Assembly: GCF_044647545.1 (NCBI RefSeq)
Contig: NZ_CP172818.1
Source: Escherichia coli
GTDB lineage: Bacteria > Pseudomonadota > Gammaproteobacteria > Enterobacterales > Enterobacteriaceae
DNA length: 64,000 nucleotides
Reading direction: 5' to 3' (one strand)
Shown: positions 39,916 to 64,000 of the stretch, one piece after another
Position numbering within the stretch: the stretch's first letter is position 1
How the letters are laid out: every line of letters begins with the position of its first letter
Notes under the pieces: generated by a model
Database searches by the model: none
The model's input: the letters and a program-made list of their open reading frames with translations, nothing else
What the model was told of the DNA's origin: nothing
Position numbers and translations under genes: made by a program

Positions 39916-40901
39916 GCCAGCTTCCAGGGTTGTCACGGGAAACAAGAGAGAGTATCGCTATGTATCACCTTCGGGTTCCACAAACAGAAGAAGAATTAGA
40001 GCGTTACTATCAGTTTCGCTGGGAAATGTTGCGTAAGCCCCTGCATCAACCGAAAGGTTCGGAACGCGACGCGTGGGATGCGATGGCGCATCACCAGATG
40101 GTCGTCGACGAGCAGGGTAATCTGGTGGCGGTAGGCCGACTGTATATTAATGCCGACAATGAAGCGTCCATTCGCTTTATGGCCGTTCATCCCGACGTGC
40201 AGGACAAAGGGTTAGGAACGCTGATGGCGATGACCCTCGAATCTGTGGCGCGTCAGGAAGGTGTTAAGCGCGTGACCTGTAGCGCCCGCGAAGACGCGGT
40301 GGAGTTTTTCGCCAAGCTGGGGTTTGTTAATCAGGGAGAAATCACCACGCCAACCACCACGCCGATTCGCCATTTTTTGATGATTAAACCCGTTGCCACT
40401 CTGGATGATATTTTGCATCGCGGCGACTGGTGCGCGCAGCTGCAACAGGCGTGGTATGAACACATCCCGCTGAGTGAAAAAATGGGCGTGCGCATTCAGC
40501 AATATACCGGGCAAAAATTTATCACCACCATGCCGGAAACAGGCAATCAGAATCCGCATCACACGCTGTTTGCCGGGAGTTTATTCTCGCTGGCAACGCT
40601 CACCGGTTGGGGGCTTATCTGGCTGATGCTGCGCGAACGCCACCTCGGCGGAACGATTATTCTGGCGGATGCGCATATCCGCTATAGCAAGCCGATTAGC
40701 GGCAAACCTCATGCGGTAGCCGACCTTGGTGCCTTAAGCGGCGATCTCGACCGTCTGGCGCGTGGACGAAAAGCACGGGTGCAGATGCAAGTAGAAATCT
40801 TTGGCGACGAGACGCCGGGTGCAGTGTTTGAAGGCACGTATATCGTTCTGCCCGCGAAGCCATTTGGCCCGTATGAAGAGGGCGGGAACGAAGAAGAGTA
40901 G
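39912..40901 (+). CDS. yiiD: GNAT acetyltransferase / thioesterase fusion protein YiiD (FabY)
   Basis: 329 aa ORF with GNAT region ([15 protein letters not shown]) followed by hotdog-like C-terminal domain. Confidence 0.85.
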
Positions 40902-40904
40902 CGT

Positions 40905-41729
40905 TGGCAGGTGCATTGCACTCCTTGCCCCTGTCATGCGGTGATACAACGCTTCACCTTCATCGCAAAGTGGGTCGTATTCAGCGGTAATGATATGTAC
41001 AGGTGGCAAGCCATTGAAATCATCGCGCCAAAGAGGGCTGGCTTCAGGATGCCTGCGTTCAATGCCTGGCAGGTACATCTCAAAGCCGCTCAGTAAAGTG
41101 TCGCGTGTGATGATGTAATCGTGACGATTGCGTATGTAGCTTTCGAAATGCGCAGTCGCATCAAGCATGGGATAAATTAAGATGACCGAGTTGTGCCGGT
41201 TGCCACTCGCCAGCACGCTTTAATCGCAAAGCAGTTACCAGCGCCAGATGTCCGCCCGCACTGTCACCGGCAAGAGTTATCCGTTGTTTATCAACGCCGA
41301 GTCGTTCGGCGTGTTGCCGACTGAATTCTGCACCTCGTTGCGCATCATCATGGGCGGCGGGGAAAGTATGTCCGGTGCCAGCCGATACTGGACGGCAATA
41401 ACCCGACATTGCCCGTAATAGGCTAACTGGCGCAGCTGGTTGTCGTGAGTTGCGAACCCGCCGCTAACAAAACAGCCACCGTAGTAATAAATTATCGTCG
41501 GGAGTAATGTCGGGGCATTCAGCGGTGACACTATTCGTAAGGTCATCGCTTCAAGTTCGATAGTCTGAATATCTACCCGCGTTTCTGTCTCACCCGCAAG
41601 GACAGCGCTGGCGATATAGCCCTCCCTGCGCTGCGCAATACTTTGTTGACGCGATGAGGGGCGACCCGCAGCGATAAACTCTTCGACTAACTCTGCAATT
41701 CCTTTTTCAGTGCCATAGTAGAACTCATT
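40905..41729 (-). pseudogene. Decayed alpha/beta-hydrolase (hormone-sensitive-lipase family esterase, Aes-like) gene remnant
   Basis: Minus-strand fragments in three or more frames: ..IIYYYGGCFVSGGFATHD.. (oxyanion-hole region), ..ITLAGDSAGGHLALVTALRLK.. (GDSAG nucleophile elbow), ..HIITAEYDPLCDEGEALYHRMTGA.. (acid-residue region); no single frame covers the gene and the 3' end runs into yiiD. Confidence 0.6.
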
Positions 41730-41945
41730 TTGCTGTATGAATGTACAGTTTTATACACCCGTTTTTACTGGATGGATACAGGGAAATTCACGGGCGTGAA
41801 AAATCTGGAAAGCGCCTCGCAAATGTAAAGACAAACCCGGCAGAGATGTGGTTTTGCTGGAGCACTATCAGTAAGCTAGTGGTTTCAAGGGTACGTCAAT
41901 GACGTACAGAAGGGGTTTATTTATCTAAGCCAATGGCGTATAATT

Positions 41946-42256
41946 ATGCTCTTCATCGAAACGGAAATTTTTACTGAAGATGTTCAAAAACTGCTGACCG
42001 ACGATGAATTCAGTCGTTTTCAGTTTTTCCTGGCCTTGAATCCTGACTATGGTGAGGTAATACCTGAAACTGGTGGGTTAAGAAAGGTTCGATGGGTGTC
42101 AGGAGGAAGGGGAAACGTGCTGGTGTCAGGGTTATTTACTTTCATCAGGTTAAACATTATGAGATCAGATTACTGCTTATTTATCGTAAGGGTATTAAAG
42201 ATAATATCTCTCCCCAGGAAAAAGCAATGCTCCGGTTGTTAAATACGAGGTGGTAA
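41946..42256 (+). pseudogene. RelE/ParE-superfamily (HigB-like) toxin with an internal frameshift
   Basis: Frame 1 gives MLFIETEIFTEDVQKLLTDDEFSRFQFFLALNPDYGEVIPETGGLRKVRWVSGGRG..; the +1 frame continues ..GKRAGVRVIYF..EIRLLLIYRKGIKDNISPQEKAMLRLLNTRW and stops at TAA directly abutting the antitoxin ATG. Confidence 0.6.
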
Positions 42257-42547
42257 ATGGATAAGGCACTTTTTGAGCGGTTGACTCACAGCATGGCCCA
42301 GATGAATGAAATTATTGAAGGAACGCGACAGCCTTCGCGGACTTTTGAAGTTGATGCTATGAAAATCAAAGAAATACGCCGCGCTTCAGGGTTGTCACAA
42401 TCTAAATTTGCCGATCTTATTTCTGTAAGCGTAGACACGTTGCGTAACTGGGAGCAGGGGCGACGTTCGCCGACCGGGCCTGCAAAGGCTTTGCTGCGAG
42501 CGATTGCCAATGATCCGCAACATGTGCTGCAAGCACTTAACCGTTAG
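42257..42547 (+). CDS. HTH (XRE-family) HigA-like antitoxin
   Basis: 96 aa ORF with HTH region IRRASGLSQSKFADLISVSVDTLRNWEQGRRSP; translationally coupled (TAAATG) to the upstream toxin frame. Confidence 0.7.
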   Translation: MDKALFERLTHSMAQMNEIIEGTRQPSRTFEVDAMKIKEIRRASGLSQSKFADLISVSVDTLRNWEQGRRSPTGPAKALLRAIANDPQHVLQALNR

Positions 42548-43150
42548 AGGCATGGTTATGCCATACAGAAAGCACCAGCATTCAGAACTCCTGTGAAAGC
42601 GGCGTAGTGCCACCTGCTCAGGAGTTTTGCTATGACCCGTAATCAGTGCTGACCGTTGCCACCCTATGATGCGATTAAAAAAACTCATCGTCGCGCCGAT
42701 GATTGACGTCAATGCTATCGGATGATACCGGGGGTGTTCCAGAAAGATCCAACTTTCCCGAACTGTTACCAACAAAATTATAACGATGAGCAAGTTAAGA
42801 CCGGTTGGTAGCAGTACTGACCGGTCTGTGATGGATGATTAATTTCACCTTAAATCCGGGTGCTGTTAGGATGCTGACATTTTTCGGCTACACCATTCAG
42901 ATTATGCAAATAAAGATCCAATCAAAAAATAAACATCCCTGTATATAATATATTTATAGCACCCATATCTCATCCTGGGCGATAACCCAACCATTTTTGA
43001 TTAACAAATGAAACAACTGCAACGTTCTTATTATTTCTGGAAAACGTCTCGCAAAAACAAAACAGCATGCAAAAATCCGCTTTTTTTAAATGATTTTTCG
43101 GCGTAATTTTCGCACATACATTAATGAGTAATATATGTAAGGTATTGGTA

Positions 43151-43369
43151 ATGGCGATGAATACGGTTTTTCTTCATTTATCAGAAGAGGCAATTAAACG
43201 GCTGAACAAGCTTAGGGGCTGGCGTAAGGTTTCACGATCTGCAATTTTACGCGAAGCGGTTGAGCAATATCTGGAGCGGCAGCAATTTCCGGTGCGTAAA
43301 GCAAAGGGTGGCAGGCAAAGGGGGGAGACAGTAGTTGTTGATGATCAGTGTAAGGAGCATAAGGAATGA
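43151..43369 (+). CDS. yiiE: Ribbon-helix-helix (CopG-like) small regulator YiiE
   Basis: 72 aa from MAMNTVFLHLSEEAIKRLNKLRGWRKVSRSAILREAVEQYLERQ inside ORF 43124..43369. Confidence 0.75.
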   Translation: MAMNTVFLHLSEEAIKRLNKLRGWRKVSRSAILREAVEQYLERQQFPVRKAKGGRQRGETVVVDDQCKEHKE

Positions 43370-43578
43370 CAAAAAATTTATTATTCTTGAATATAAAAAC
43401 CAGATGCCCTTATTCTGGTATTAATACAAGGCTGTTTTACTTGAACTTATAATAACTGCAACTGTTACATCATATCTGGAAAACGCCTCGCGAAATACGA
43501 GAGTTTGGAATAGCAGGTGTCGTCATACCCTATGAACTGTAATCCGGGCGACCAGCGCCACCCGGAAAACGTCAGAGA

Positions 43579-44508
43579 TTACTCCCCTTCACCCGGAAAC
43601 AGGAACGGGTTGATGGAACTACGGGCATAGCCTTCTTGCTCCATTCGCGCGTCCAGTACCAGAGAGGCGAGGTCATCTGCCACGGCTTCAACTTTCGGTT
43701 CTTTTTCCTGATAAAGAATCTTCAGGTAAGTGCCGCAGTCATCGCAGCTTTCGGCTTTAATCGCGGCCTGTTCGTCATCCAGCGACCAGTAATGCAGTTT
43801 GCCGCTTTGTTCACAGTTGCTGCATTTTACGCGTACTACGTGCCATTCAGTTTCACACAGGTTGCAGTGCAGGTAACGCAGCCCCTGAGTGGTGCCAATT
43901 TGCACCATGCTGGACACCGGCATAGAACCACAAACCGGGCAATATTGACGTTGTTCGCCATATTCCGCACGCGCTTTGCCGGGGATCAGATTGGCCATCT
44001 GCGCCCAGTAGAGCGACAGTGCAGCCCAGATAAACGGCGCTTTATCGCTGCTGACGGACGAGAAATCAGAGGCAAACAGTGCGCTGGCCATATCTTCCAG
44101 CTCCTGAGTCGATGCCTTCTCCAGATTCTCAATCACTGCCAGCGCCGGGCCGCTCATTTCAGGTTTCAGCTCAGCAATCAGCGCCATCAGCAGCTTTTGC
44201 CAGTGCTTATCACGCGGCAGAACGTGAATATCCAGCGGGGGCTTGCCTTGTGCGCTGGCTTCTTTAATGCGCGTGGTCAGATCCATCTCCAGCGGATGGT
44301 CGTACAGCACCACTTCCTGGGCGTGGGCGATAAGCGCAGCAAAGCGCAGGTAATCACCCAGCGGATTATTTTCTGCCAGCTCGCGCAGACGCTCGGCGCG
44401 GCGGTTGTATAAATTCTTGAGCCGAGGGAACAATAACGGCGGAATCATATCCGCCGTACGTTTCTCGCTCGAACCCAGCTCATCTTGCGGGATTATGCGA
44501 ATACTCAT
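43579..44508 (-). CDS. fdhE: Formate dehydrogenase accessory protein FdhE
   Basis: 309 aa ORF with CxxC pairs ([23 protein letters not shown]). Confidence 0.93.
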
Positions 44509-45140
44509 TCAGCTTTCTTTTCCGTTGTCTTGCGGACCTCACGGTACCAGCGCGGGTGATGTTTCTTCGCCCAGGCGCTGGTAACCCATCCTTCCACCAT
44601 GGCGGTAATCGTGCCTTTCACCCAAAGGGCGGCGTAGATATGCACCATGATAACCACAATTAACGCCACTGCGGCAAATGAATGCAGCATTAACGCGAAT
44701 CGGATCACCGGGATTGAGAAAGCAGGTGCAAAATAAGGACGCCAGATAATCACGCCGCTCACCAGCAGCAGAACCAGGAAAATAATCGCCGCCCAGAAAA
44801 CGCATTTCTGACCGAAGTTATAACGCCCGGTGTCACCTACTTCCTCGTTGACGACGATCTTACGAATATTCTTCGCCCAAAAGATATCATCCCGATTGAT
44901 TAGGTTGTGATGCCAGTAACGGAAAAACATGATGATGAACGAGGCAAACATAACCACGCCGACAAACGGGTGCAGAATGCGCGCCAGCTGCGGTGTGCCC
45001 ATGATTTGCATCAACCAGTTGAAGGACGGGAACAAAAAGCCCAGCCCGCTCACCGCCGCCAGGATGAAGCAGAAGGCGGTGATCCAGTGGTTGATACGTT
45101 CCGGCGCGGTGTAGCGCACGATGGTGTCACGTCGTTTCAT
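44505..45140 (-). CDS. fdoI: Formate dehydrogenase-O cytochrome b556 subunit
   Basis: 211 aa membrane ORF with conserved His ligands; overlaps fdoH stop. Confidence 0.92.
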
Positions 45141-46039
45141 TTGCGCTCCTCGTCTTTCTCTTCGTGCAGATTATTCTCTTCCTCATCCGCACGGTTCGGA
45201 CCGACACCCACGTAGTGGAAGATACTGGCCGCAAAGGTAGCCGCAAAGCCAACAGCCGCGAGCGGTTTCCAGATGCCTTTCCAGAATTTCACGGTTTCGC
45301 TGATTTCCGGGTTCTCCGGCAAGCCATGATACAGATTTGGCTTGTCAGCATGGTGCAGCACGTACATAACATGTGTACCACCGACGCCTGCCGGGTCGTA
45401 CAAACCCGCATTGTCGTAACCACGGGTTTTCAGCTCCGCCACGCGCTCGCTCGCCAGCGTTTTCATCGACTCTTTCGTACCGAAGTGAATCGCGCCCGTT
45501 GGGCAGGTCTTCACGCAGGCCGGTTCTTGCCCAACCACCACGCGGTCAACGCACAACGTACATTTGTAGACGCGGTTGTCTTCCGGGTTGAGGCGCGGAA
45601 TGTCGAACGGACAGCCCGCAATGCAATAACCGCAGCCGATGCACTGCTCGGACTGGAAGTCGACGATACCGTTGGCATACTGAATAATTGCCCCTTCCGC
45701 CGGGCACGCTTTCAGGCAGCCTGGATCGGAACAGTGCATACAGCCGTCTTTGCGGATCAGCCATTCCAGTTTGTCGTTCTGCTCCACTTCCGAGAATCGC
45801 ATCACCGTCCACGATTTGGCACTTAAATCATTGGGGTTGTCGTACACCCCAATGTTATTGCCGACGGTATCGCGAATGTCGTTCCACTCTGAACACGCCA
45901 CCTGACAGGCTTTACAGCCGATACAGGTGGTAACGTCGATGAGTTTCGCCACTTCTTCCTGGAAGTCCCGCGCCTGAGGCGCGGGGGTCAGACCGTTAGT
46001 CGCGGAACGACGAATGATATCTTGCGATTGATAAGCCAT
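45137..46039 (-). CDS. fdoH: Formate dehydrogenase-O iron-sulfur subunit
   Basis: 300 aa ORF with four ferredoxin-type Cys clusters (CIGCKAC.., CMHC.., CIGCGYC.., CTLC..). Confidence 0.94.
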
Positions 46040-46051
46040 ATGTCGTCTCCG

Positions 46052-49000
46052 TTACACCTTTTCCACATTCACAAGGAAGGACTTAAACTCCGGCGTCTGC
46101 GTGTTCGCATCACCCACGAATGGCGTTAACGTATTGGCAATAAAGCCTTTTTTCGCAACGCCTTCATAGCCCCAGTGAATCGGAATACCGATGGTATCGA
46201 TATCTTTGCCGTTCGCTTTCAGCGTGCGAATACGTTTGGTCACCACCGCTTTGGCTTTGATATAGCCACGGTTGGAGGAGACTTTCACAGTATCGCCCTG
46301 GGCAATGCCAAGTTTATTCGCCAGCGACTCCCCGATTTCCACAAACTGCTCTGGTTGCAAAATCGCATTCAACAGCGCGTGTTTGGTCCAGTAGTGGAAG
46401 TGCTCGGTCAGACGATAGGTGGTTCCGACATACGGGAACTTATCGGCTTTACCCAATGCTTCGGCGTCGTCTTTAAAGATACGCGCAGCCGGGTTCGAGA
46501 TAACGTTTGGATGCAGCGGGTTAGTTCCCAGCGGCGTTTCAAACGGCTCGTAGTGTTCCGGGAACGGACCTTCCGCCATCTTATCGAGGGCAAACAGACG
46601 TCCCATGCCTTCCTGCTGCATGATAAACGGCCCTACGCCGCTGCCCGGAGGCGCTGCGCTGTAGTCCGGAATATCCCAGCCGGTCCACTTAGTGCCGTCC
46701 CATTTCAGCAACTGACGCTTCGGATCCCATGGGTTACCCTGCGGATCTGCGGAGGCGCGGTTATACAGAATGCGGCGGTTAAGCGGCCATGCCCATGCCC
46801 AGCCCAGCGTGTTACCGAGGCCAGACGGATCGGCGTTATCACGACGCGCCATCTGGTTACCTTCTGGCGTCCAGCTACCGGCGAAAATCCAGCAGCCACA
46901 GGAGGTCGTACCGTCATCGCGCAGTTGGGCGAACGAGCTAAGTTGTTGGCCTTTCTTGACGATAACCGCACCGGTTGCCGGATCGGTAATATCGGCCAGC
47001 GCCTTACCGTTGCTCTCCATCGCCACTTCTTCCGACTTCGGCTCATGCGGAATGGCGTAGTTCCAGGTCATATTCAGCACCTGGTCCGGGTTTGCGCCAC
47101 CCTGTTCGGCATACATCTTGCGCAAGCGCAGGAAGATACCGGAGAGGATCTCGCCATCAGTCAGCGCAATCCCTGGGGCGTCCGCACCTTTCCAGTGCCA
47201 CTGTAACCAGCGACCGGAGTTAACGATTGAACCGTTCTCTTCTGCGAAGCAAGTCGATGGCAGACGGAACACTTCGGTCTGGATCTTCGACGAGTCAACT
47301 TCGTTCAGCTCACCGTGGTTCTGCCAGAAGTTAGAGGTTTCAGTGTTCAGCGGGTCGATGGTGACGAGGAACTTCAGTTTCGACAGACAGCCGATCACTT
47401 TGTTTTTGTTCGGGAATGAGGCAACAGGGTTAAAGCCCTGGCAGATATAGCCATTGACCTTGCCCTCTTTCATCATCTCGAAGTATTGCAGGACGTCGTA
47501 GCCTTTATCCCACTTCGGCAACCAGTCAAAGCCCCAGTTATTTTCCGCCGTCGCTTTATCACCAAAGAAGGCCTTCATCATGGAGACGAAGAATTTCGGG
47601 TAATTGCCCCAGTAGTTAACCTGGCCTTCCAGCAGTGGTTTCGGCGTGTTGGCGGTAAGGTAAGTTTGCAGATCGGTCTGCTTCTCGCTTGGCAACGTCA
47701 TGTAACCTGGCAGACTCTGCGACAGCAGCCCCAGGTCGGTCAGCCCCTGAATATTGGAGTGACCGCGCAGGGCGTTAACGCCGCCGCCAGCCATCCCCAT
47801 ATTGCCGAGCAGCAGCTGGATCATCGCCATCGTACGAATGTTTTGCGCACCAATGGAGTGTTGCGTCCAGCCGAGGGCGTAGAGGAACGACGCTGTTTTA
47901 TCGTGAGCACTGGTTTCGGCGATGTATTCGCAGACTTTCAGGAACGCGTCTTTTGGCGTACCGCAGATGTTTTCAACCACATCTGGCGTATAACGGGAAA
48001 CGTGCTGTTTCAGCAAGTTCCACACGCAACGTGGATGTTGCAGCGTGGTATCGCGTTTGGCGAAGCCGTTTTCGTCCAGTTCGTAAGTCCAGGAGGATTT
48101 ATCGTACTTGCGTTTTTCCGCGTCGTAGCCGGTGAACAGGCCATCTTCAAAGCCGTAATCCTCACGCACGATCAGGCTGGCGTTGGTATAGGCTTCGGTG
48201 TATTCGCGGTTGAATTTTTCATTGTTCAGCAGGTACAGCAATACGCCTGACAGGAAAGCAATGTCAGTCCCGGAACGAATAGGGGCATAGTAGTCAGCCA
48301 CCGCCGCCGTACGTGTAAAGCGAGGATCGATCACAATCAGCTTCGCGCCGTTGTGAATTTTGGCTTCCATCGCCCAGCGGAACCCGACCGGGTGAGCTTC
48401 AGCGGCGTTACCGCCCATCACCACGACGAGGTTGGCATTCTTGATGTCGACCCAGTGGTTGGTCATCGCACCGCGACCAAATGTTGGAGCAAGACTTGCT
48501 ACCGTTGGTCCGTGTCAGACACGCGCCTGGTTGTCGACCGCGAGCATACCCAGCGCGCGGGAGAATTTTTGCGTTAAATAGCCGGTTTCGTTACTCGACG
48601 CGGAAGCACACAGCATCCCGGTGGAGAGCCAGCGGTTAACAGTCACGCCTTCGGCGTTTTGCGCAATGTAGTTCGCATCGCGGTCTTCTTTCATCAGTTT
48701 GGCGATGCGATCAAACGCCTCTTCCCAACTGATTTGTTGCCATTTATCAGAACCTGGCGCACGGTATTCCGGAAACTTCAGGCGGCTTTCGGAGTGGATG
48801 AAATCCACCAGGCCAGCGCCTTTCGGACAAAGTGCTCCGCGGTTGACCGGGTGATCCGGGTCACCTTCGATATGGAAGATAGATGCTTTGGCGTTTTTTG
48901 CTCCGTCACCGAGGCTGTACATCAACAGCCCACAGCCTACGGAACAATAGGTGCAGGTATTACGGGTTTCGCGGGTGCGCAGCAGTTTATACTGCCGGGT

Positions 49001-49102
49001 TTCCGCGAGTGCTACGCTGGGTGCAAAACCCAGTGCCGCTGCCGTGGTGCCTGCCATACCGCCAGCGCAGATCTTAAAGAACTGCCTTCTGCTGACCTGC
49101 AT
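46052..49102 (-). CDS. fdoG: Formate dehydrogenase-O major (molybdopterin/selenocysteine) subunit; in-frame TGA at 48515-48517 read as selenocysteine
   Basis: ORFs 48515..49102 (Tat signal RRQFFKICAGGMAGTTAAALG) and 46052..48466 are in the same frame, separated only by one TGA; combined length ~1016 aa. Confidence 0.93.
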
Positions 49103-49295
49103 GGATTGCTCCTTGTTTCGACATTGTCACGTCCCATTTACATTCGCTTGCTGCGTGTGCAGGGAGTGGGAGTTATTTTTCTTTGCGGAAGGGGCCGCAA
49201 AGGTCCAGAATTGGCTCAATTTCCCTCCATCCAGGAAGGGTTTGTAACAGAATACCATAATGTTGGTGTGTGTGTTCTTATCTGGTTAAGAGAAA

Positions 49296-50129
49296 GTGAA
49301 AAAAACACAGCAAAAAGAAATCGAAAATGTGACAAGTGTCACAGGTGTTCGTCAAATTGAGTTATGGCGGCGTGATGATTTACAACACCCACGGTTAGAT
49401 GAGGTGGCGGAAGAGGTTCCCGTTGCGCTGGTCTACAACGGCATTTCGCATGTAGTGATGATGGCGTCACCCAAAGACCTTGAGTACTTTGCGCTCGGTT
49501 TTTCGCTTTCCGAGGGGATTATCGAAAGTCCGCGCGATATCTTCGGTATGGATGTCGTTCCTTCCTGTAATGGTCTGGAAGTGCAAATTGAGCTTTCCAG
49601 CCGCCGCTTTATGGGGTTGAAGGAGCGTCGCCGGGCACTGGCGGGACGTACGGGATGTGGCGTGTGCGGCGTGGAGCAACTTAATGACATCGGAAAACCG
49701 GTGCAGCCGCTACCGTTCACCCAGACGTTTGATCTCAACAAACTGGATGATGCATTACGTCATCTCAATGATTTTCAGCCAGTGGGGCAACTGACCGGTT
49801 GTACTCACGCCGCCGCCTGGATGTTGCCATCTGGCGAACTGGTCGGCGGGCATGAAGACGTGGGTCGCCATGTGGCGCTGGACAAACTGTTAGGCCGCCG
49901 GTCACAAGAAGGGGAAAGCTGGCAGCAAGGTGCGGTGCTGGTTTCCAGCCGTGCCAGTTATGAAATGGTGCAAAAGTCAGCGATGTGTGGCGTAGAGATT
50001 TTGTTTGCGGTGTCTGCCGCGACCACGCTTGCCGTAGAAGTGGCTGAGCGCTGTAATCTGACACTGGTAGGTTTTTGTAAACCGGGTCGGGCAACGGTTT
50101 ATACCCATCCGCAGCGTTTGAGCAATTAA
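49296..50129 (+). CDS. fdhD: Sulfurtransferase FdhD (formate dehydrogenase maturation)
   Basis: 277 aa ORF; synteny divergent from fdoGHI. Confidence 0.92.
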
Positions 50130-50281
50130 TTAAAATAAGTCCTGCGAGATATATTAAATTGCAGGACTTATTCATTTCGTGAATTTTATTATTTTATTTA
50201 TAAACAAAACGCGTGTAGTGGCGTTTTCTTTTTTCATTTATTATGTTCACTCTCTTATCTATATATTTATAAGGCAATTAA

Positions 50282-51337
50282 ATGAAAAGGAATTTATTAT
50301 CTTCCGCTATTATAGTCGCCATCATGGCCCTCGGTCTCACGGGTTGTGATGATAAAAAAGCCGAAACAGAAACGCCCCCGCCTGCCAATAGTCAACCTGC
50401 CGCACCAGCTCCTGAAGCGAAACCTGCTGAAGCTCCCGTTGCAAAAGCAGAAGTTAAACCTGAAACGCCTGCCCAACCGGTGGTCGATGAACAAGCGGTT
50501 TTCGACGAAAAAATGGATGTCTATATCAAGTGCTACAACAAGTTACAGATCCCGGTACAGCGCAGTCTGGCGCGTTATGCTGACTGGCTGAAAGATTTTA
50601 AACAGGGGCCTACCGGTAAAGAGAGTACTGTTTATGGCATCTACGGCATTAGTGAATCCAGCCTCGCTGAGTGTGAAAAAGGCGTAAAAAGTGCTGTGGC
50701 GTTAACGCCTGCGCTGCAACCTATTGATGGCGTAGCGGTGAGTTATATCGATGCTGCCGTGGCGTTGGGTAATACCATTAACGAAATGGATAAATATTAC
50801 ACCCAGGAAAATTATAAAGACGATGCGTTTGCGAAAGGGAAAACGCTGCACCAGACATTCTTAAAAAATCTGGAAGCCTTTGAACCTGTAGCCGAATCTT
50901 ATCATGCGGCGATCCAGGAAATTAATGATAAGCGTCAGCTTGCGGAACTGAAAAATATTGAAGAAAGAGAAGGGAAAACATTCCACTACTATTCTCTGGC
51001 AGTCATGATTTCAGCGAAACAAATTAATAACCTGATATCGCAAGAGAAGTTTGATGTTGATGCGGCAATGAAGAAAGTGTCTGAACTGGAAACGCTGGTG
51101 GCGCAGGCCAAAGAAGCGGATAAAGGCGGCATGAATTTCTCGTTTATTAATTCGGCAGGCCAGTATCAACTCGAGGCTAAAAAATACGTTCGCCGCATCA
51201 GAGATAAAGTCCCGTACTCTGACTGGGATAAAGAGCAACTTCAGGACGCAAACTCAAGCTGGATGGTCGAAGACTCTTTCCCGAGAGCATTACGCGAGTA
51301 CAACGAAATGGTCGATGATTATAATCGCCTGCGTTAA
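50282..51337 (+). CDS. yiiG: Lipoprotein YiiG (DUF3829)
   Basis: 351 aa ORF, lipobox LGLTGC, Pro/Ala-rich linker. Confidence 0.85.
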   Translation: MKRNLLSSAIIVAIMALGLTGCDDKKAETETPPPANSQPAAPAPEAKPAEAPVAKAEVKPETPAQPVVDEQAVFDEKMDVYIKCYNKLQIPVQRSLARYADWLKDFKQGPTGKESTVYGIYGISESSLAECEKGVKSAVALTPALQPIDGVAVSYIDAAVALGNTINEMDKYYTQENYKDDAFAKGKTLHQTFLKNLEAFEPVAESYHAAIQEINDKRQLAELKNIEEREGKTFHYYSLAVMISAKQINNLISQEKFDVDAAMKKVSELETLVAQAKEADKGGMNFSFINSAGQYQLEAKKYVRRIRDKVPYSDWDKEQLQDANSSWMVEDSFPRALREYNEMVDDYNRLR

Positions 51338-51386
51338 ACGTTTTTGATGATAAATGCAGTGTCGGATGCGGCGCATCCGACACAGT

Positions 51387-53135
51387 TCACCCCTTGTGAA
51401 GTAACTCCATAAATGCCTCATATCCTGTTAACCCGGCAATAACCTCTGCCGGATGCTGACACAATACGCTTGCCAGATAGCTAAATATTTTTAGCTCATG
51501 ACGCGCATCGGCGGCGGCGCAGGCGATCAAAACATGGTTAATGACTTCGTTATTCACCTCAACTGATTGGGCGAGGGTAATAAAAAATCCACGAAAACGT
51601 CGCTCCTGTTCGCTCCAGCAATGTGGGATGGCGAGGCGATTAACAATCAGGTTTTCACCTTCGCCTTCGCGGGCGATGATCCGTTGCGCTTCATCGGCGG
51701 TAATATGGTGTTGTGCGACTAATTGAGCACAAATTTGCCGGGTAATATGTTGCCAGCTTTCACCGCGTACATTCGAATAATGAAAACTTCCGGGGGCAGA
51801 GAAAAAACGCTCCGGTTGCCGGCGAATAAACGCCGTCGCCAGAAAATGTTTTATTTGTTCGATACCGGCGGCAGTAATAATGTTTTTTACGGTGATGCAA
51901 TTATTGACCGCATCATCCAGTAAATAATGGCTGTTATTAATGATCAATAACGGCTCAATCTCTTCGCGAATGGCAACCAGTTCGCTTACGCTGCGGGCAA
52001 TAATCACCCGACAATTCAGGACATCGCGCTCAATGGCGAGCTGATTAATAGTAGCAATCGCGTTCTGATCAGAGAGCAAAATGATCGGCTGGCGTTCGTT
52101 TTGATGCCGTTCCAGCGCACAGGCAAAATACAAACCAATCAGATCGCTGTCGAAAAGGGGAATATCGAGTTGTTCACGCAGTAGCGTAATAAAGTGCAGA
52201 CTCATATCAAAGGCCGCAGGCCAGGCGGCTTTCAGGTTATTCATGCTGCTTTGGCGGTGCTCGGCAATCCACACCGGTGCGGCAAGGCAACGTAATAAAT
52301 GCCCGGTAATATTCTCAACCAACTGCGTATCAATAATATTCAATGACGCGATGCCTGGCACCCTTTGCAGCAACCCCAGCACATGATCGGCAGAAATTAC
52401 CTGCGCTTGCTGATGCTGTTTCTCTATCAAACCTGTCAGGGTTCTTACAGCGTTATCACCAAGAAACAGGCCGCTCTGTTCAACGATTTGTTTTATCTCG
52501 TCACCGGGATATTGCGGCCACTCATCGGTCAGTTGATTACGCAGGGCGTAAATCGCCAGAATCAGGCTTGAGAGATAGTCGCCTTGCATCAGCGGCCAGC
52601 GACGTTGCTTTTCGCAGGCGGTGGTTAATTGTTGAAAATTGTCTCGTGTTACGCCCGACAGCGGAATTAAAAACGGATCTTTGCGTAAAAGATTCGCCAG
52701 CAAAATAATGCGTTTCTCTTCTGTCTCATCAATGAAATGGCCCAAACCAGGGCGACTAGCGAGACAAAAACCGCGTTCATAGCGCTGTTTCAGGCGGGGC
52801 AGGCGCTCTGCTACCCACGTTTCTGGCAAATTAAGCGCCGAGGCGAGTTGCGCACGGGGAGTGAAGGTATTCAGTAATAACAGCGCCAGCAGCCGATCGT
52901 CGTTATCGTGCTTTTGCAGCAACTGAAAAAAGCTGCGGCGCTCGAAGATTTCCAGCTGATAGCCCGCGTTGCCACTGGCGGAAATGCGGGCTTTGCCGTT
53001 AAGGGTAAAGTTGAGATAGTCAATATCACGCAGGATGGTCCTGCCGGAAACGCCAGTCTGTTGCGCCAGCTCGCCAGGCGTGCGTGGCTGTTGCTTCAGC
53101 AGATCGACAATCTTTAACTGGCGTTCGTTTAGCAT
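51387..53135 (-). CDS. frvR: Putative frv operon regulator FrvR (HTH plus PTS regulation domains)
   Basis: 582 aa ORF; synteny downstream of frvABX. Confidence 0.88.
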   Translation of the reverse strand: MLNERQLKIVDLLKQQPRTPGELAQQTGVSGRTILRDIDYLNFTLNGKARISASGNAGYQLEIFERRSFFQLLQKHDNDDRLLALLLLNTFTPRAQLASALNLPETWVAERLPRLKQRYERGFCLASRPGLGHFIDETEEKRIILLANLLRKDPFLIPLSGVTRDNFQQLTTACEKQRRWPLMQGDYLSSLILAIYALRNQLTDEWPQYPGDEIKQIVEQSGLFLGDNAVRTLTGLIEKQHQQAQVISADHVLGLLQRVPGIASLNIIDTQLVENITGHLLRCLAAPVWIAEHRQSSMNNLKAAWPAAFDMSLHFITLLREQLDIPLFDSDLIGLYFACALERHQNERQPIILLSDQNAIATINQLAIERDVLNCRVIIARSVSELVAIREEIEPLLIINNSHYLLDDAVNNCITVKNIITAAGIEQIKHFLATAFIRRQPERFFSAPGSFHYSNVRGESWQHITRQICAQLVAQHHITADEAQRIIAREGEGENLIVNRLAIPHCWSEQERRFRGFFITLAQSVEVNNEVINHVLIACAAADARHELKIFSYLASVLCQHPAEVIAGLTGYEAFMELLHKG

Positions 53136-54211
53136 TAATCCACCTGACGGAACTGGCTAAACGCGTTGACTTTCTCCGCGGTTAAGGTGGTCAGAAAATC
53201 CCTTATCAACGTGAGCAGAGCATCGTAATCGGCTTTTGAAATCATACCGCTATTGGCGTGCAGATAACGCGTTGGCAGACACAGCGCGACAACTGGACGC
53301 CCGCCGCCCATCACGTTGTAGCGCCCGCCATCCGTCGCTCCGGTTTTCATGGTGGAAAATTGCAGCGGTAAATCGTTATGTGCGGCACAGCTTTTTAACG
53401 CCGCCACCAGTTTCTGGTTGGGGAAGTAGCGCTTGTCAAACAGCATCAGCCCCGGCCCCTGGCCCAGTTTCAGCGGGTATTTTATGTTATCAATGCCCGG
53501 AACATCGCCCGCTACGGCGGTATCCAACACGATCACGACGTCCGGTTTAATGTGTTCCGCCGAGGTTTGTGCCCCGCGTAGCCCAACTTCTTCTTCCACG
53601 CTGCCGACGCCATACAGCGTAATTTCGGGGTTATTTACTGTCTGTAGTAGCTCAGCCATCATCGCGCAGCCGATGCGGTTATCCAGCGCCTTGCCGACCA
53701 CTTTATCTTCGCCCCAGCAGGCAAAATTGGCTTCCGGGCTAATAAAATCGCCAATTTCCACGCCGCGCTTTTCCACCTCTTCGCGACTGTTCGCGCCAAT
53801 ATCAATGAACATCTCATCAAATGACAGCGGTTGTTGCTTTTGCTTTTCGGTTAACGCATGAGGCGCGACGGAACCAATCACACCAGGGATTTTCACTCCC
53901 TTGTGTGTGCGTATGGTTACCCGGTGGTTGAGCATCGACTGATTCCACCAGCCACCAATGGTGGTGAAACGCAAAAAACCGCTCTCGTCGATGTGGGTGA
54001 CCATAAAGCCGACTTCATCCATATGCCCGACAACGGCAACTTTTGGCCCTTTATTCCCCTTACGGGCAACAAAGCTGCCCAGACCATCAAAGGTGATCTC
54101 ATTAACGCAAGGTTCCAGCGTGTTTATCAGAATGTCGCGAACTTCCTGTTCATCGCCGCTGACGGCGCTGGCTTCGCACAACTGTTGCAGTAACTCAATG
54201 TTCATGGACAA
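53135..54211 (-). CDS. frvX: M42-family aminopeptidase/cellulase-like protein FrvX
   Basis: 358 aa ORF; synteny. Confidence 0.88.
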   Translation of the reverse strand: MSMNIELLQQLCEASAVSGDEQEVRDILINTLEPCVNEITFDGLGSFVARKGNKGPKVAVVGHMDEVGFMVTHIDESGFLRFTTIGGWWNQSMLNHRVTIRTHKGVKIPGVIGSVAPHALTEKQKQQPLSFDEMFIDIGANSREEVEKRGVEIGDFISPEANFACWGEDKVVGKALDNRIGCAMMAELLQTVNNPEITLYGVGSVEEEVGLRGAQTSAEHIKPDVVIVLDTAVAGDVPGIDNIKYPLKLGQGPGLMLFDKRYFPNQKLVAALKSCAAHNDLPLQFSTMKTGATDGGRYNVMGGGRPVVALCLPTRYLHANSGMISKADYDALLTLIRDFLTTLTAEKVNAFSQFRQVD

Positions 54212-55652
54212 GCTCCTGTTGCGCAGCTTTGGCTTTGCGGCGTAACCATAATCCTTTCAGGACGATAATGAATGAAATGTTCAGCGCGAGGCCAATCGCC
54301 AGCACCAGGTAAAACGAACCTACCGGCGACATCAGGCCGATCAGCGGGTCAAAGATACCCAAACCAGGTGCCAGTCGTTTGATTCCGAAAGCGATCACCA
54401 GCACGCCGGTAATGCCGCCCGCCAGCGTATTGGCGGTGATCATTGGCAGTGGTGCCGCCAGAGCGTAAGGAATAGCCGGTTCGGTCGCGACCGTGGCACC
54501 GACCACAATGGCGCTACTGGCGGCTTCTTTTTCCTGTTGAGTAAACAGCTTGGGCGCAATGAACGTCGCAAGACCCGCCGCGACAGGCGGCATCAGCGCG
54601 ACAACGCCGACGATGGCGTACCAGTCGTAAATGTGTTTTTCCAGCAGTGAGAAGCAGAAGAACCAGGCGGTTTTATTGATAGGACCGCCCATATCGAACG
54701 CCAGCATCGCACCGACCAAAAACGCTGCCGCAAACTTCATTGACGGAGGAATGGTGTTCAGGAAGTGCAGCAACCCGCCCATGAGGTCGGACATCACCGG
54801 TCCGATAACGTAGTAAGTCAGTACGCCGAAAACCAGCAGAGTGACGAACGGGATCAGCATGGAACCGAGCAGCGGTTGTAATGCTTTGCCAAGGCGCACT
54901 TTACGGAACCAGAAGACGAAATAGCCAATCGCCAGCCCCAGCACCACCGCACCGAGGAAGCCCGCGCCAGACTGGGTGCCGAGCAGGGCTTTGTCATTCG
55001 CCAGATAGCAAACCAGAAACGCCGGAGCGAAAGCCGGTTTATCGGCAATCGACGAGGCAATATAAGCGCCCATGATGGGGATCATAAAGGTGAAGCCGAG
55101 ATAACCGATGGATTCCACCACCCAGGTAAACGACGGCGCGCCTTTCGACATATCGGTATACGGCAAACCGAACTGCACCAGCATGTTGGCAAGCGCCACC
55201 AGGATACCGCCACCGATGACAAACGGCAGCGCCGCAGAAACACCCGCCATCAGATGGCTCATTACGCTGCCACTTTGCACTTCCTGTTTGCCGAGCTTCA
55301 CGCCGCTATCTGCGGCAAAAAGCTGCGAGTTTGTCGGTAATTCACTGAAAATCTGGTCGATATTTTTCAGCGCCTGGGAGATGGCAATCTCATAAACCTT
55401 TTTCCCGGCAAATCGCGCGCGATCATCACCGCTCAGGCCACGCCCGGTAGCGAGAATCACGTAATCGGCAGCGGCAATCTCTTCGCTGGATAAGCGGTTT
55501 TCGATGCCGCTTGATCCTTGAGTTTCAACTTTAATGGTATGACCGAGAGAACGGGCTTTCTGTTCCAGGGCTTCCGCCACCATGTAGGTGTGAGCGATCC
55601 CGGCGGGGCAGTTGGTGATCGCGACAATACGTAAGGATGACTCCATCGCCAC
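54195..55652 (-). CDS. frvB: Fructose-like PTS EIIBC component FrvB
   Basis: 485 aa ORF, N-terminal EIIB Cys motif (ITNCPAGIAHTYM) and polytopic EIIC domain. Confidence 0.9.
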   Translation of the reverse strand: MAMESSLRIVAITNCPAGIAHTYMVAEALEQKARSLGHTIKVETQGSSGIENRLSSEEIAAADYVILATGRGLSGDDRARFAGKKVYEIAISQALKNIDQIFSELPTNSQLFAADSGVKLGKQEVQSGSVMSHLMAGVSAALPFVIGGGILVALANMLVQFGLPYTDMSKGAPSFTWVVESIGYLGFTFMIPIMGAYIASSIADKPAFAPAFLVCYLANDKALLGTQSGAGFLGAVVLGLAIGYFVFWFRKVRLGKALQPLLGSMLIPFVTLLVFGVLTYYVIGPVMSDLMGGLLHFLNTIPPSMKFAAAFLVGAMLAFDMGGPINKTAWFFCFSLLEKHIYDWYAIVGVVALMPPVAAGLATFIAPKLFTQQEKEAASSAIVVGATVATEPAIPYALAAPLPMITANTLAGGITGVLVIAFGIKRLAPGLGIFDPLIGLMSPVGSFYLVLAIGLALNISFIIVLKGLWLRRKAKAAQQELVHEH

Positions 55653-55656
55653 TTCC

Positions 55657-56103
55657 TTATGAGCTGAGGGTTTGATTTAACAAAGCAAGTACCTGGTCGG
55701 CGTCGCCCTGTCGCAGTTGGTTGATAAAATCCTGGTGGATAATTTTGCGGCACAGCGTGCCGATGATTTTGACCTGTTCCTCTTCGCCACTTTGTGGCAC
55801 GCCGAGGCAGATCCAGCAATTGACGTCTTCGCCATCGCTGGCCTGCCAGTCAATGGCCTGCGTTTTGCGGGCGAATAACACGAACGGTTGTTTAACGCAG
55901 GCGCTTTTACCGTGCGGCACGGCGACACCGGAACCAAATCCCGTGGAGTGCATTTTTTCGCGCAGCAGCAGGGTTTGCAGGAACTGGTGTGAGTCGGTGA
56001 TAAAACCGTTTTGTAACGCCATTGTCGCCAACTGCTTCAGAACGGAATAAGCGCCATTGCCCTGAATATTCAGGTCAATACAGCTTGCAGTAAGTGCTGC
56101 CAT
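55657..56103 (-). CDS. frvA: Fructose-like PTS EIIA component FrvA
   Basis: 148 aa from MAALTASCIDLNIQ..; EIIA(Fru/Mtl) family with conserved His region (GVAVPHGKS). Confidence 0.9.
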   Translation of the reverse strand: MAALTASCIDLNIQGNGAYSVLKQLATMALQNGFITDSHQFLQTLLLREKMHSTGFGSGVAVPHGKSACVKQPFVLFARKTQAIDWQASDGEDVNCWICLGVPQSGEEEQVKIIGTLCRKIIHQDFINQLRQGDADQVLALLNQTLSS

Positions 56104-56539
56104 TATTGGATTCCATGAAAAAATATAATAGTTAATTGTAACGGCGGGGCGGTTTTGTGATGAGCGCGGATATGTCGTGAAGTCGTGACAATATAAGGCA
56201 GAGTGAAGGATAAATTTTGCGGTGTAAGGCACATATTGATGGGTAAAATAAAGCAGTGAATAAAAAATCATTATTTAATGATGTTGTGAATGTTTAACTG
56301 CCGCACATGTTTTGCAGCAAGGTTATTTATATTTGTGGCTTATGAGTCAGCGTGAATTATATCTAATATTTTTAACGATATTTGGTTAAAAACGGCACTA
56401 TTGTTTATTCCTCAGTTCCAGAAATCAGCGGATTTACTCATATTATACGATACTATCCATCGCCTCTAAGTTGATTAAAAATTCGAAATCACACCTTATA
56501 TTTCTCTATAACTATTCCTTTTGAAACATCTCTTTTTTT

Positions 56540-57125
56540 GGGGAAGAAAAAAAAAAAAAACATTTGTTTGGGGAGGAGAGGGAAAAAAAAAAATTAAGGG
56601 AACAACGAGATTGTGGAAGAAGCCGGAGAGAAAAAAGCGGCAAAAAAAGAGAGAGAGGGGGAAAAAAAGCAGACAAAAAAAGGGAGACGGAAAAAGAGCG
56701 CGAGAAGGGGAAAAAGAGGAGAAGCGGGGAGCGAGAAAAAAAAACCCACCTCTCTTCTTCTCTGGGAAAAAAAAGCGGGAAAATAAAGGGAAAAGAAGGG
56801 GGGAGAAGAGTGGAGAAGACCACAAAAGAGAGGAGTGTTGTTGGAAAGAGAAGAAGTCGCGGGGTCCCCCGCAGGGGGGAGGGGGAGAAAAAGGGGTGTT
56901 TTCGCAAGAAAAAGAAGAAGGAAAGAAGGGGGGAGTGCCGGAGGAAGTGTGAGTAGAAAAACGAATGAGGGGGGAGCTATATGAAAGAAGGGGCGGGGGC
57001 AGGGGGTCATTCGGAAAAAAAAAAGAATGTTGAAAAAAAAGAAAGAAAAGGAAAAATTAAAGAAGAAAAGAGGAGGGGAGGGAGAAAGAAAATTCGGGAT
57101 GCGGGGCAGGAGGGTGCGCGGTGCT
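56540..57125. other. Anomalous ~590 bp polypurine (A+G) low-complexity tract
   Basis: Directly visible: GGGGAAGAAAAAAAAAAAAAA..GGGGAGGAGAGGGAAAAAAAAAAA..; plus strand almost devoid of pyrimidine runs; overlapping ORFs in several frames encode only low-complexity K/E/R/G or P/S/F/L peptides. Confidence 0.9.
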
Positions 57126-57152: not shown

Positions 57153-57467
57153 TTAAGGCAGGTAAAACACTTCTTGCAGCTCGCTACTGACTGGGCTGTT
57201 ATCCGGGTTAGCTGGCATAACGTCGGTCATATATTTCCACCAACGTTGGCAAACATCAGTACTGGCTACCGCATTCCACCGTTCTTCAGATTCAATCTCT
57301 ACCGTGGCAAACAGCAGATTACGCGCTTTGTCGAGGTAAATGGCGTAGTTATGTGCACCGTGAGATTTCAACACTGCTTCCAGTTCCGGCCAGATTGGAT
57401 TATGCCGACGCTGATACTCTTCGTGGGCGTCGGGGTTAACCTGCATGACAAAGGCTTTGCGGATCAT
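57153..57467 (-). CDS. rhaM: L-rhamnose mutarotase
   Basis: 104 aa [41 protein letters not shown].. Confidence 0.93.
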
Positions 57468-57476
57468 GTTTGCTCC

Positions 57477-58301
57477 TTACAGCGCCAGCGCACTGGCGAG
57501 TGGTGTAACACCGAAACGCTGGCCGAGCGCTATCAGCTCTTCACGACTGATGGTCTGTTTCATGCCGCCCATCGAATAAACCTTCACTAATACTTGTGCT
57601 GATTTTTCTGCGGTGTCGATTAAACCGAATGTTTCATCCAGTGTCGGACCGCTGCCGAAGACGCCGTGGAAGGGCCACAACACCAGCGAATGTTTTTGCA
57701 TTTCCTGTGCGGTCGCCTGGCCGATTTCGTCCGTGCCGGGCACCATCCACGGCAAAATGCCGACGCCATCCGGGAACACTACCAGACACTCGGTGCTGCC
57801 TTCCCAAAGCTGGCGAGTGAAGAGCGCGGTGTCGTTTTCCAGTACGTAGGTAAGGGCGATCAGGTTGGTGGCGTGGCAGTGCATGATCACCCGATCTTTA
57901 CCGTTGGTGGCTTTAATGCGCTCGCAGTGGGAGAGAAAGTGAGCCGGAAGTTCAGAGGTTGGAACGGCTTCGTTGGTTAGCCCCCAGAGAATATGGTAGC
58001 CCGCGCCGTCGCTGTCGACTTTTACGACGCCTAAGTTAGCCGCAGGATCAAGCTGGACGTTACGAAAGAATTTGCCGGAGCCGGTGACAATAAACGGTGT
58101 ATTTGCCAGTAAAGGCATGGGCTGGATGAGCGGGATATAGCGCGGTTGTGCATGAAAGTTGCCGTGATAAGGCGCGATATCGGCGTCATCCAGGCGCAGC
58201 GTCAGGTTACCACCATTGCGCTCGTCCCAGCCTTTCAGCCAGGCGTCGGTGGTGGCTTTGATCATTCCCTGGACAAACCAGGACTGGGTAATGTTTTGCA
58301 T
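57477..58301 (-). CDS. rhaD: Rhamnulose-1-phosphate aldolase
   Basis: 274 aa from [37 protein letters not shown] inside ORF 57477..58394. Confidence 0.95.
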
Positions 58302-58319: not shown

Positions 58320-58737
58320 TTGGACGTCCGTGCCTGTTGCCGGATGTACGATCTGTAGGCCGGATAAGGCACTCGTGCCGCATCCGGCAATCAATGCCTG
58401 ATGCGACGCTGTCGCGTCTTATCAGCCTACAACTATTGCCGACCCTAGCCGGATATGGCGCTCGTGCCGCATCCGGCAATCAATGCCTGATGCGACGCTG
58501 TCGCGTCTTATCAGGCCTACAACTATTGCCGACCTGTAGGCCGGATAAGGCACTTGTGCCGCATCCGGCAACAATGCTGATGCGACGCGTCGCGTCTTAT
58601 CAGGCCTACAACTATTGCCGACCCGTAGCCGATATGCGCTCGTGCCGCATCCCAATCAATGCCGATGCGACGCTGCGCGCTATCAGGCCACAACAGCCGA
58701 CCCGAGGCCGGAAAGGCACGGCCGCATCCGGCAGTGT
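58320..58737. repeat. Tandem REP/BIME array (~4.5 units of ~85 bp) in the rhaD-rhaA intergenic region
   Basis: Repeated GCCGGATAAGGC.CTCGTGCCGCATCCGGCAATCAATGCCTGATGCGACGCTGTCGCGTCTTATCAGGCCTACAACTATTGCCGACC; distal copies progressively lose bases. Confidence 0.8.
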
Positions 58738-61750
<3,013 letters not shown>

Positions 61751-62587
61751 ATGACCGTATTACATAGTGTGGATTTTTTTCCGTCTGGTAACGCGTCCGT
61801 GGCGATAGAACCCCGGCTCCCGCAGGCGGATTTTCCTGAACATCATCATGATTTTCATGAAATTGTGATTGTCGAACATGGCACGGGTATTCATGTGTTT
61901 AATGGGCAGCCCTATACCATCACCGGTGGGACGGTCTGTTTCGTACGCGATCATGATCGGCATCTGTATGAACATACCGATAATCTGTGTCTGACCAATG
62001 TGCTGTATCGCTCGCCGGATCGATTTCAGTTTCTCGCCGGGCTGAATCAGTTGCTGCCACAAGAGCAGGATGGGCAGTATCCGTCTCACTGGCGCGTTAA
62101 CCACAGCGTGTTGCAGCAGGTGCGACAGCTGGTTGCACAGATGGAACAGCAGGAAGGGGAAAATGATTTACCCTCGACCGCCAGTCGCGAGATCTTATTT
62201 ATGCAATTACTGCTCTTGCTGCGTAAAAGCAGTTTGCAGGAGAACCTGGAAAACAGCGCGTCACGTCTCAACTTGCTTCTGGCTTGGCTGGAGGACCATT
62301 TTGCCGATGAGGTGAATTGGGATGCCGTGGCGGATCAATTTTCTCTTTCGCTGCGTACGCTACATCGGCAGCTTAAGCAGAAAACGGGACTGACGCCTCA
62401 GCGTTACCTGAACCGCCTGCGACTGATGAAAGCTCGACATCTGCTACGCCACAGCGAGGCCAGCGTTACTGACATCGCCTATCGCTGCGGATTTAGCGAC
62501 AGTAACCACTTTTCGACGCTTTTTCGCCGAGAGTTTAACTGGTCACCGCGTGATATTCGCCAGGGACGGGATGGCTTTCTGCAATAA
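61751..62587 (+). CDS. rhaS: AraC-family activator RhaS
   Basis: 278 aa ORF with cupin N-domain and C-terminal AraC HTH. Confidence 0.96.
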
Positions 62588-62660
62588 CGCGAATCTTCTC
62601 AACGTATTTGTACGCCATATTGCGAATAATCAACTTCGTTCTCTGGCCGAGGTAGCCACG

Positions 62661-63509
62661 GTGGCGCATCAGTTAAAACTTCTCAAAGATGATTTTTTTG
62701 CCAGCGACCAGCAGGCAGTCGCTGTGGCTGACCGTTATCCGCAAGATGTCTTTGCTGAACATACACATGATTTTTGTGAGCTGGTGATTGTCTGGCGCGG
62801 TAATGGTCTGCATGTACTCAACGATCGCCCTTATCGCATTACCCGTGGCGATCTCTTTTACATTCATGCTGACGATAAACACTCCTACGCTTCCGTTAAC
62901 GATCTGGTTTTGCAGAATATTATTTATTGCCCGGAGCGGCTGAAGCTGAATCTTGACTGGCAGGGAGCGATTCCGGGATTTAGCGCCAGCGCAGGGCAAC
63001 CACACTGGCGCTTAGGTAGCGTGGGGATGGCGCAGGCGCGGCAGGTTATCGGTCAACTTGAGCATGAAAGTAGTCAGCATGTGCCGTTTGCTAACGAAAT
63101 GGCAGAGTTGCTGTTCGGGCAGTTGGTGATGTTGCTGAATCGCCATCGTTACACCAGCGATTCGTTGCCGCCAACATCCAGCGAAACATTGCTGGATAAG
63201 CTGATTACCCGGCTGGCGGCCAGCCTGAAAAGTCCCTTTGCGCTGGATAAATTTTGTGATGAGGCATCGTGCAGTGAGCGCGTTTTGCGTCAGCAATTTC
63301 GCCAGCAGACTGGCATGACCATCAATCAATATCTGCGGCAGGTCAGAGTGTGTCATGCGCAATATCTCCTCCAGCATAGCCGCCTGTTAATCAGTGATAT
63401 TTCGACCGAATGTGGCTTTGAAGATAGTAACTATTTTTCGGTGGTGTTTACCCGGGAAACCGGGATGACGCCCAGCCAGTGGCGTCATCTCAATTCGCAG
63501 AAAGATTAA
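62661..63509 (+). CDS. rhaR: AraC-family activator RhaR (GTG start)
   Basis: 282 aa from (V)[37 protein letters not shown].. inside ORF 62550..63509. Confidence 0.93.
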
Positions 63510-64000
63510 TTCGCCATGCCGATGCCGACGATGTTAGCGGCGACAATAATCACCACACAACCGAGGCTCAACACCGTTACCGGACGGCGTCCTGCATTGT
63601 TCCACTCTTTCAGCACCAGCCCGACGATACCGCCGCACAATACATAGAAGCTCATATGCAGCATCCAACTGATGTAGTCATACTGCGCCGGAATGCGGGC
63701 GTGGCCCCAGGCATAGAAAAAGAATTGCAGATACCACATCAACCGCCCAGTGCTGAGAGTAACACATTGTGAATGATCAGCGGTTTTGCCAGCGAGAAGT
63801 CGGCTTTTAGCGACAAATCTTTCACTTTTGCCAGACGAATGAAGCAGAAACCGAGGTTGATGATCGCGCCGCCTCCCATGATGACAACATAGCTTGGCAG
63901 AGCGACATACAGTGGATCGACGCCCAGTGCGGCAGCGGCTTCATGCATCGGTTTTGCGGCGTTCATCGCAAAGGACATCCCGGCAGAGAAAATGCCGCAC
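63506..64000 (-). pseudogene. rhaT: L-rhamnose-proton symporter RhaT, 3' portion (gene continues past window end), split by an apparent 1 bp deletion near 63739-63742
   Basis: ORFs 63739..63978 (..[16 protein letters not shown]) and 63506..63742 ((L)[19 protein letters not shown]..) are consecutive RhaT segments in different frames. Confidence 0.75.

Follow-up and report, generated by a model that had tools for sequence, protein, structure and literature searches.

A single-base deletion in rhaT inherited within one Escherichia coli clone and its predicted effect on rhamnose uptake

The rhaT gene at the end of a 64,000-nt stretch of Escherichia coli DNA (NCBI RefSeq assembly GCF_044647545.1, contig NZ_CP172818.1), here called the window, is a pseudogene through the loss of one G, and this pseudogenization is real, recent and clone-wide. 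From comparisons with complete E. coli genomes and with the RhaT protein family, we conclude with good confidence that the deletion has been inherited within one E. coli clone, in which high-affinity rhamnose uptake by RhaT is predicted to be most probably lost.

The rhaT lesion, its locus and its distribution

Reading the strand between positions 63000 and 64000 and listing its open reading frames reproduced two minus-strand frames at rhaT, just as the original prediction had described them: 63739..63978, which ends in LLSALGG followed by a TGA, and 63506..63742, which starts with TTG in another frame, reads MWYLQ and has IVGIGMAN as its C-terminal end. The family is known as the L-rhamnose/H+ symporter RhaT (NCBIfam NF010021, TIGR00776, Pfam PF06379). 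Both fragments derive from one rhaT gene, since they match the NCBIfam equivalog NF010021 at profile positions 1-266 and 268-344, respectively. With the G put back, the protein matched the same profile collinearly over 1-344 of its 344 positions, with a score of 767 bits (cut-off 509).

Aligned to the intact alleles of a K-12-like strain, ATCC 25922, AR_0013 and LR-28, the gene misses exactly one base and has no further indel. This alignment, which the original prediction had named as its check, and the profile matches bear out its claim that the gene is rhaT and that a 1-bp deletion breaks it. The identity of the base had been mistaken. A T was thought to be missing from an A/T run, but all intact alleles read CTG GGC GGG TTG ATG where the window reads CTG GGC GGT TGA TG, so that the base lost is one of G796-798, the GGG run of codon Gly266. 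Inserting a T does restore the same protein, as had been stated (GGT TTG also encodes Gly-Leu), but it does so by coincidence and with the wrong base.

Compared with K-12 and ATCC 25922, this is the same gene at the same locus, 1034 nt long instead of the 1035 nt of the intact alleles, with the uninterrupted 344-codon frame broken by a TGA after codon 266. The N-terminal product ended by this new TGA has 266 amino acids, and the last 78 residues of K-12 and ATCC 25922 RhaT are not attached to it. Restoring the G yields the sequence of the intact ATCC 25922 RhaT (100% identity), in which four residues are not those of the K-12-like protein.

The window ends at 64000 and holds only the 3' 495 nt of rhaT (63506..64000, minus strand), which are identified as a pseudogene by the reading frames, the alignment, the matches to NF010021 and the RefSeq label 'frameshifted' in identical genomes. 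The whole gene (1034 nt, minus strand) has an expected span of about 63506..64539; its 5' end lies beyond the window, and the 5' part was taken from 100%-identical genomes. The 495 nt match the tail of the gene of strain ST648 exactly, and window positions 61001-64000 have 0 mismatches to the record of that strain. On the minus strand, alignments to intact references place the deletion site, with the leftover GG of the ancestral GGG (rhaT nt 796-798, Gly266), at 63743..63744. The in-window part of the N-terminal reading frame runs to Gly266 (63742..64000) and is closed by the premature TGA that the frameshift creates (63739..63741). The orphaned C-terminal frame, which corresponds to RhaT residues 268-344 in the NF010021 match (77 amino acids plus stop), occupies 63506..63739, and its ATG (63737-63739) overlaps the new TGA as TGATG. 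PGAP (RefSeq) labels rhaT as a 'frameshifted' pseudogene in the three records examined; the lesion is already recorded in public annotation and is ordinary in kind.

The genomic context of rhaT is conserved, with the gene order sodA-rhaT-rhaR-rhaS-rhaB-rhaA-rhaD-rhaM. The regulatory genes rhaR (62661..63509, mapped from genome FDAARGOS_497 and identical here) and rhaS (61751..62587, 278 aa) lie on the plus strand; rhaB (59994..61463, 489 aa), rhaA (58738..59997, 419 aa), rhaD (57477..58301, 274 aa) and rhaM (57153..57467, 104 aa) lie on the minus strand. The reading frames of the window support rhaS and these four genes, together with the annotation of FDAARGOS_497 (rhaS, rhaB, rhaM) or identity to it (rhaA, rhaD). 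All six are full length, and PGAP annotates all six as intact in FDAARGOS_497, which is identical to the window over these genes. This agrees with the original prediction that rhaBAD, rhaSR and rhaM are intact. The regulators rhaSR and the catabolic genes rhaBAD and rhaM remain intact beside a broken rhaT. The genes rhaT and rhaR are convergent and their stop codons overlap by 4 nt (63506-63509), the usual arrangement of the locus, also found in K-12.

Upstream of the rhaT coding region, beyond the window, a double substitution changes TACACT to TATGCT, a -10-like hexamer, 49-50 nt before the rhaT ATG (locus L001, 2411-2412). This variant occurs in 60 complete genomes, namely the 59 carriers of the deletion (see below) and LR-28. 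Since LR-28 has TATGCT together with an intact rhaT, the change predates the deletion, and we rejected it as a sign of decay. A consensus promoter scan did not place the activator-dependent PrhaT.

We call the clone ST648 solely after the strain name of one record (CP008697). Among the approximately 5,420 complete E. coli genomes, exactly 59 have the rhaS-rhaR-rhaT haplotype of the window, and the deletion is present in every one of them. A 3-kb query retrieved 59 genomes at approximately 100% identity, all of them spanning 3000 nt, from which it follows that all 59 carry the deletion; the 60th match, AR_0013 (99.2%), is one base longer (3001 nt) and its rhaT is intact. A 601-nt query was 100% identical in many complete genomes. 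A 62-mer over the lesion was found exactly in 59 of 5418 genomes, and the other matches listed all span 63 nt. The deletion is absent from the remaining complete genomes (approximately 5,360). The haplotype with the G restored was found in none of the complete E. coli genomes; LR-28, the closest relative found with an intact gene, shows 99.6% identity over 6.4 kb and has the GGG run, the G being the sole indel. The deletion is present in every member of the haplotype, absent from its sister lineages and derived, as in a lineage-fixed pseudogene.

The carriers were obtained by many laboratories from humans, dogs, poultry, a pig, a wild bird, a dolphin and wastewater. Beyond RefSeq, 950 public contigs (NCBI, ENA, JGI, Logan) encode exactly the 266-aa truncated product, and at least 1000 contigs from the same sources contain the exact 77-aa reading frame. 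Two contigs with the 77-aa frame (L010 and L011) were rejected as lesions, as they contain scaffold gaps (runs of N). The distribution as a whole shows a genuine 1-bp deletion, GGG to GG at codon 266, that was inherited from the ancestor shared by a single E. coli clone of worldwide spread. The lesion is young, since restoring the G recovers the protein of an intact allele, and 57 of the 59 haplotype genomes do not differ over 3 kb. No secondary decay of rhaT (extra stops, indels or excess substitutions) was found, the restored protein being that of an intact allele; this lack of decay says nothing about residual function.

It is unlikely that the loss was selected rather than neutral, or that the GGG run is a mutational hot spot at which rhaT is repeatedly switched off. 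The same GGG to GG deletion was found on an O157:H7-like haplotype (L009, 2401-2579) and on a porcine-ETEC-like haplotype (L013, 2401-2579), which are approximately 98.1-98.3% identical to the clone, and the SNPs flanking the deletion in these two leave only 122-164 nt for recombination. Another 1-bp deletion (G775), 21 nt upstream, was found in O157-like contigs from seven samples (L012, 2401-2579), and rhaT is independently broken in O157:H7. However, L009 and L013 each represent one short-read (Logan) sample, the complete genomes of their lineages are without the deletion, and the deletion is confined to one clone in the set of 5,426 complete genomes. With a k-mer of approximately 31 in the assembler of the Logan pipeline, the two variants, which are 21 nt apart, would form one bubble, so that chimeric assembly of mixed samples would explain L009 and L013. 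We consider this at least as likely as recurrence. The deletions in L009, L013 and L012, which are absent from the complete genomes of their lineages, could reflect chimeric assembly or else repeated mutation of a gene that was no longer functional.

Consequence for the transporter

RhaT residues 253-281 form an uncharged hydrophobic stretch between K252 and R282, and the break between residues 266 and 267 lies at its middle. The secondary structure predicted by AlphaFold2 has a helix at 251-280, followed by helices at 285-313 and 320-343, at low confidence (pLDDT 41). The input was a 14-sequence alignment of proteins that are more than 90% identical, and only the helix boundaries were used. 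A PDB sequence search with RhaT returned nothing at E ≤ 1. Given a RhaT topology of 10 helices (Tate and Henderson 1993, as cited in PMC7354573), the break falls midway along predicted transmembrane helix 8 of 10, and the predicted product is without half of TM8 and without all of TM9 and TM10. Because these parts are absent, loss of RhaT transport is most likely. Translation would stop at the TGA after Gly266, and high-affinity rhamnose uptake by RhaT would most probably be lost; at the protein level, loss of transport activity is likely.

For the cell as a whole, we infer a rhamnose phenotype that is weak, delayed or concentration-dependent rather than an absolute negative. In a strain without RhaT transport and rhamnose catabolism, a dose-dependent response to rhamnose persists (PMC6664373). 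This indicates that an alternative route of rhamnose entry exists, so that the physiological effect of the lesion may be small, and that RhaT loss does not seal the cell against rhamnose. Our literature search found no paper on the rhaT lesion or the rhamnose phenotype of the ST648 clone.

That the frameshift spares rhamnose uptake through a split RhaT, or that the GGG run is a recurrently hit switch, is quite improbable. If either were true, rhaT loss would be something that can happen repeatedly among pathogenic E. coli clones, possibly under selection. Taken by itself, the split gene is very improbable. It would require that translation reinitiates at TGATG (63737-63741), where the new stop and the ATG of Met268 overlap, and that RhaT(1-266) and RhaT(268-344) assemble into a fully or partly functional transporter. 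Such a pair would lack no residue but Leu267, and the fragments are otherwise wild-type. The anti-SD pairing upstream of the ATG (GGGCGGU) is -6.4 kcal/mol, against -6.1 at the native rhaT start, and is stronger than at approximately 89% of internal ATGs. The 77-aa C-terminal piece might therefore be made from a restart at TGATG, although the spacing of 1-2 nt between the SD-like element and the ATG is probably too short. The cut, moreover, is within a transmembrane helix, and neither in a loop nor at the 5+5 repeat boundary of the transporter superfamily, and the split arrangement is limited to one young clone, with no evolutionary sign of upkeep. O157 strains with a truncated RhaT are still rhamnose-positive (PMC7354573), but this precedent may equally reflect RhaT-independent entry (PMC6664373). 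A non-functional RhaT with its last two and a half helices missing is the reading that we prefer.

Fidelity of the window and of the reading frame

An error of sequencing or assembly in the source of the window, with rhaT really intact, is effectively refuted. It deserved attention, as the same window holds a corrupted stretch (56527-57115) that is without a match in any complete E. coli genome, and zones in which missing T or G bases are the sole difference from relatives. Outside support for the deletion matters because the assembly of the window is locally unreliable; the window alone would not prove the deletion. This support is given by the identical deletion in 59 of 59 independently sequenced complete genomes of the haplotype and in approximately 950 other contigs. 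Positions 58721-64000 are also base-for-base (100%) identical to FDAARGOS_497, and a G run of 3 nt is not an error-prone homopolymer. The original prediction had considered that reads might show an intact homopolymer, a concern that does not apply to a lesion found in all haplotype genomes and absent from the other complete genomes.

The corrupted stretch itself consists of approximately 590 nt of almost pure purine and low complexity (A 258, G 216, T 61, C 51), and had no match among the complete E. coli genomes (5,426). In all close relatives, the interval between frvA and rhaM holds a 1395-nt 'carbohydrate porin' gene (WP_000749944.1) in place of this stretch. We regard the stretch as most likely artefactual, with bases dropped in assembly or consensus. 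When it was tested as a base-dropped copy of the porin gene, 40 conflicts were counted against 44-53 in shuffles, a marginal gain only. Two further zones, on either side of the artefact, are 56252-56523 and 58424-58720 (the latter being the rhaD-rhaA intergenic repeat region); they differ from FDAARGOS_497 almost exclusively in lacking G or T bases, which would fit a local loss of bases in the source assembly or another repeat copy number. Positions 43507-56251 are identical to FDAARGOS_497, whereas SNPs and small indels are clustered at 40894-43506, in the region of the genes for an alpha/beta hydrolase, a hypothetical protein and nadS.

Two other frameshifts were encountered in records of the clone. 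The gene frvB (window 54195-55652; L005, 2393-3845) is 'frameshifted' in CP008697, intact in FDAARGOS_497 and a full-length reading frame in the window; because of the latter two, the lesion is an error or a private mutation of CP008697 and does not characterize the clone. Near the start of rhaS, at codons 8-10 (L001, 5221), one base of a T7 run is missing from two assemblies of the clone (GCA_029964605.1 and GCA_045574525.1; L015 and L016), which alters the called length of RhaS. A homopolymer error of long reads is the probable cause, with secondary decay of the regulon as the other possibility.

In some genes, frameshifting can be promoted by a stop codon in the A site. Recoding of this site, by a programmed -1 frameshift or transcriptional slippage yielding full-length RhaT, is nonetheless of negligible probability, as C GGT TGA contains neither an X XXY YYZ slippery heptamer nor a long A/T run for slippage of RNA polymerase, a +1 shift of the prfB type would not lead into the right frame, the frameshift is absent from all other lineages and so is not a conserved recoding site, and Rfam gave no RNA family match in 63300-64000, which includes the rhaT site.

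Relation to known rha lesions and significance

The rhaT pseudogene of O157:H7 resembles that of the clone in being a lineage-fixed rhaT lesion with the other rha genes intact. In O157:H7 (strain FDAARGOS_293; L018, 301-1335), the substitution G152A causes W51*, which PGAP annotates as 'internal stop'. This stop is near the N-terminus and would remove the first helices, whereas the frameshift of the clone would remove the last 2.5 helices. O157 strains with broken rhaT tested rhamnose-positive, as cited above. Single-base frameshifts in rha genes that have become fixed in a pathogenic clone, and can serve as its marker, are also known from a rhaS frameshift in O26:H11 and a rhaR frameshift in CC119 (O165:H25) STEC, for which negative or delayed rhamnose fermentation has been measured (PMC10132054, PMC7354573). 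These lesions strike regulators, whereas that of the ST648 clone strikes the transporter. The clone joins O157:H7, O26:H11 and CC119 as a pathogenic clone with a broken rha gene.

ST648 has its own PhenePlate type, and rhamnose is on that sugar panel (PMC6709473, PMC10434162). For PMC10434162, it is only implied that ST648 differs from ST2797 on the panel of sugars that includes rhamnose. The rhaT deletion may explain part of the sugar-fermentation fingerprint of ST648. The lesion shows no new mechanism, and its use is mainly in strain typing, as a clean single-base marker of an internationally spread and often multidrug-resistant E. coli clone. The clone could also serve to ask whether E. coli has a RhaT-independent route of rhamnose entry.
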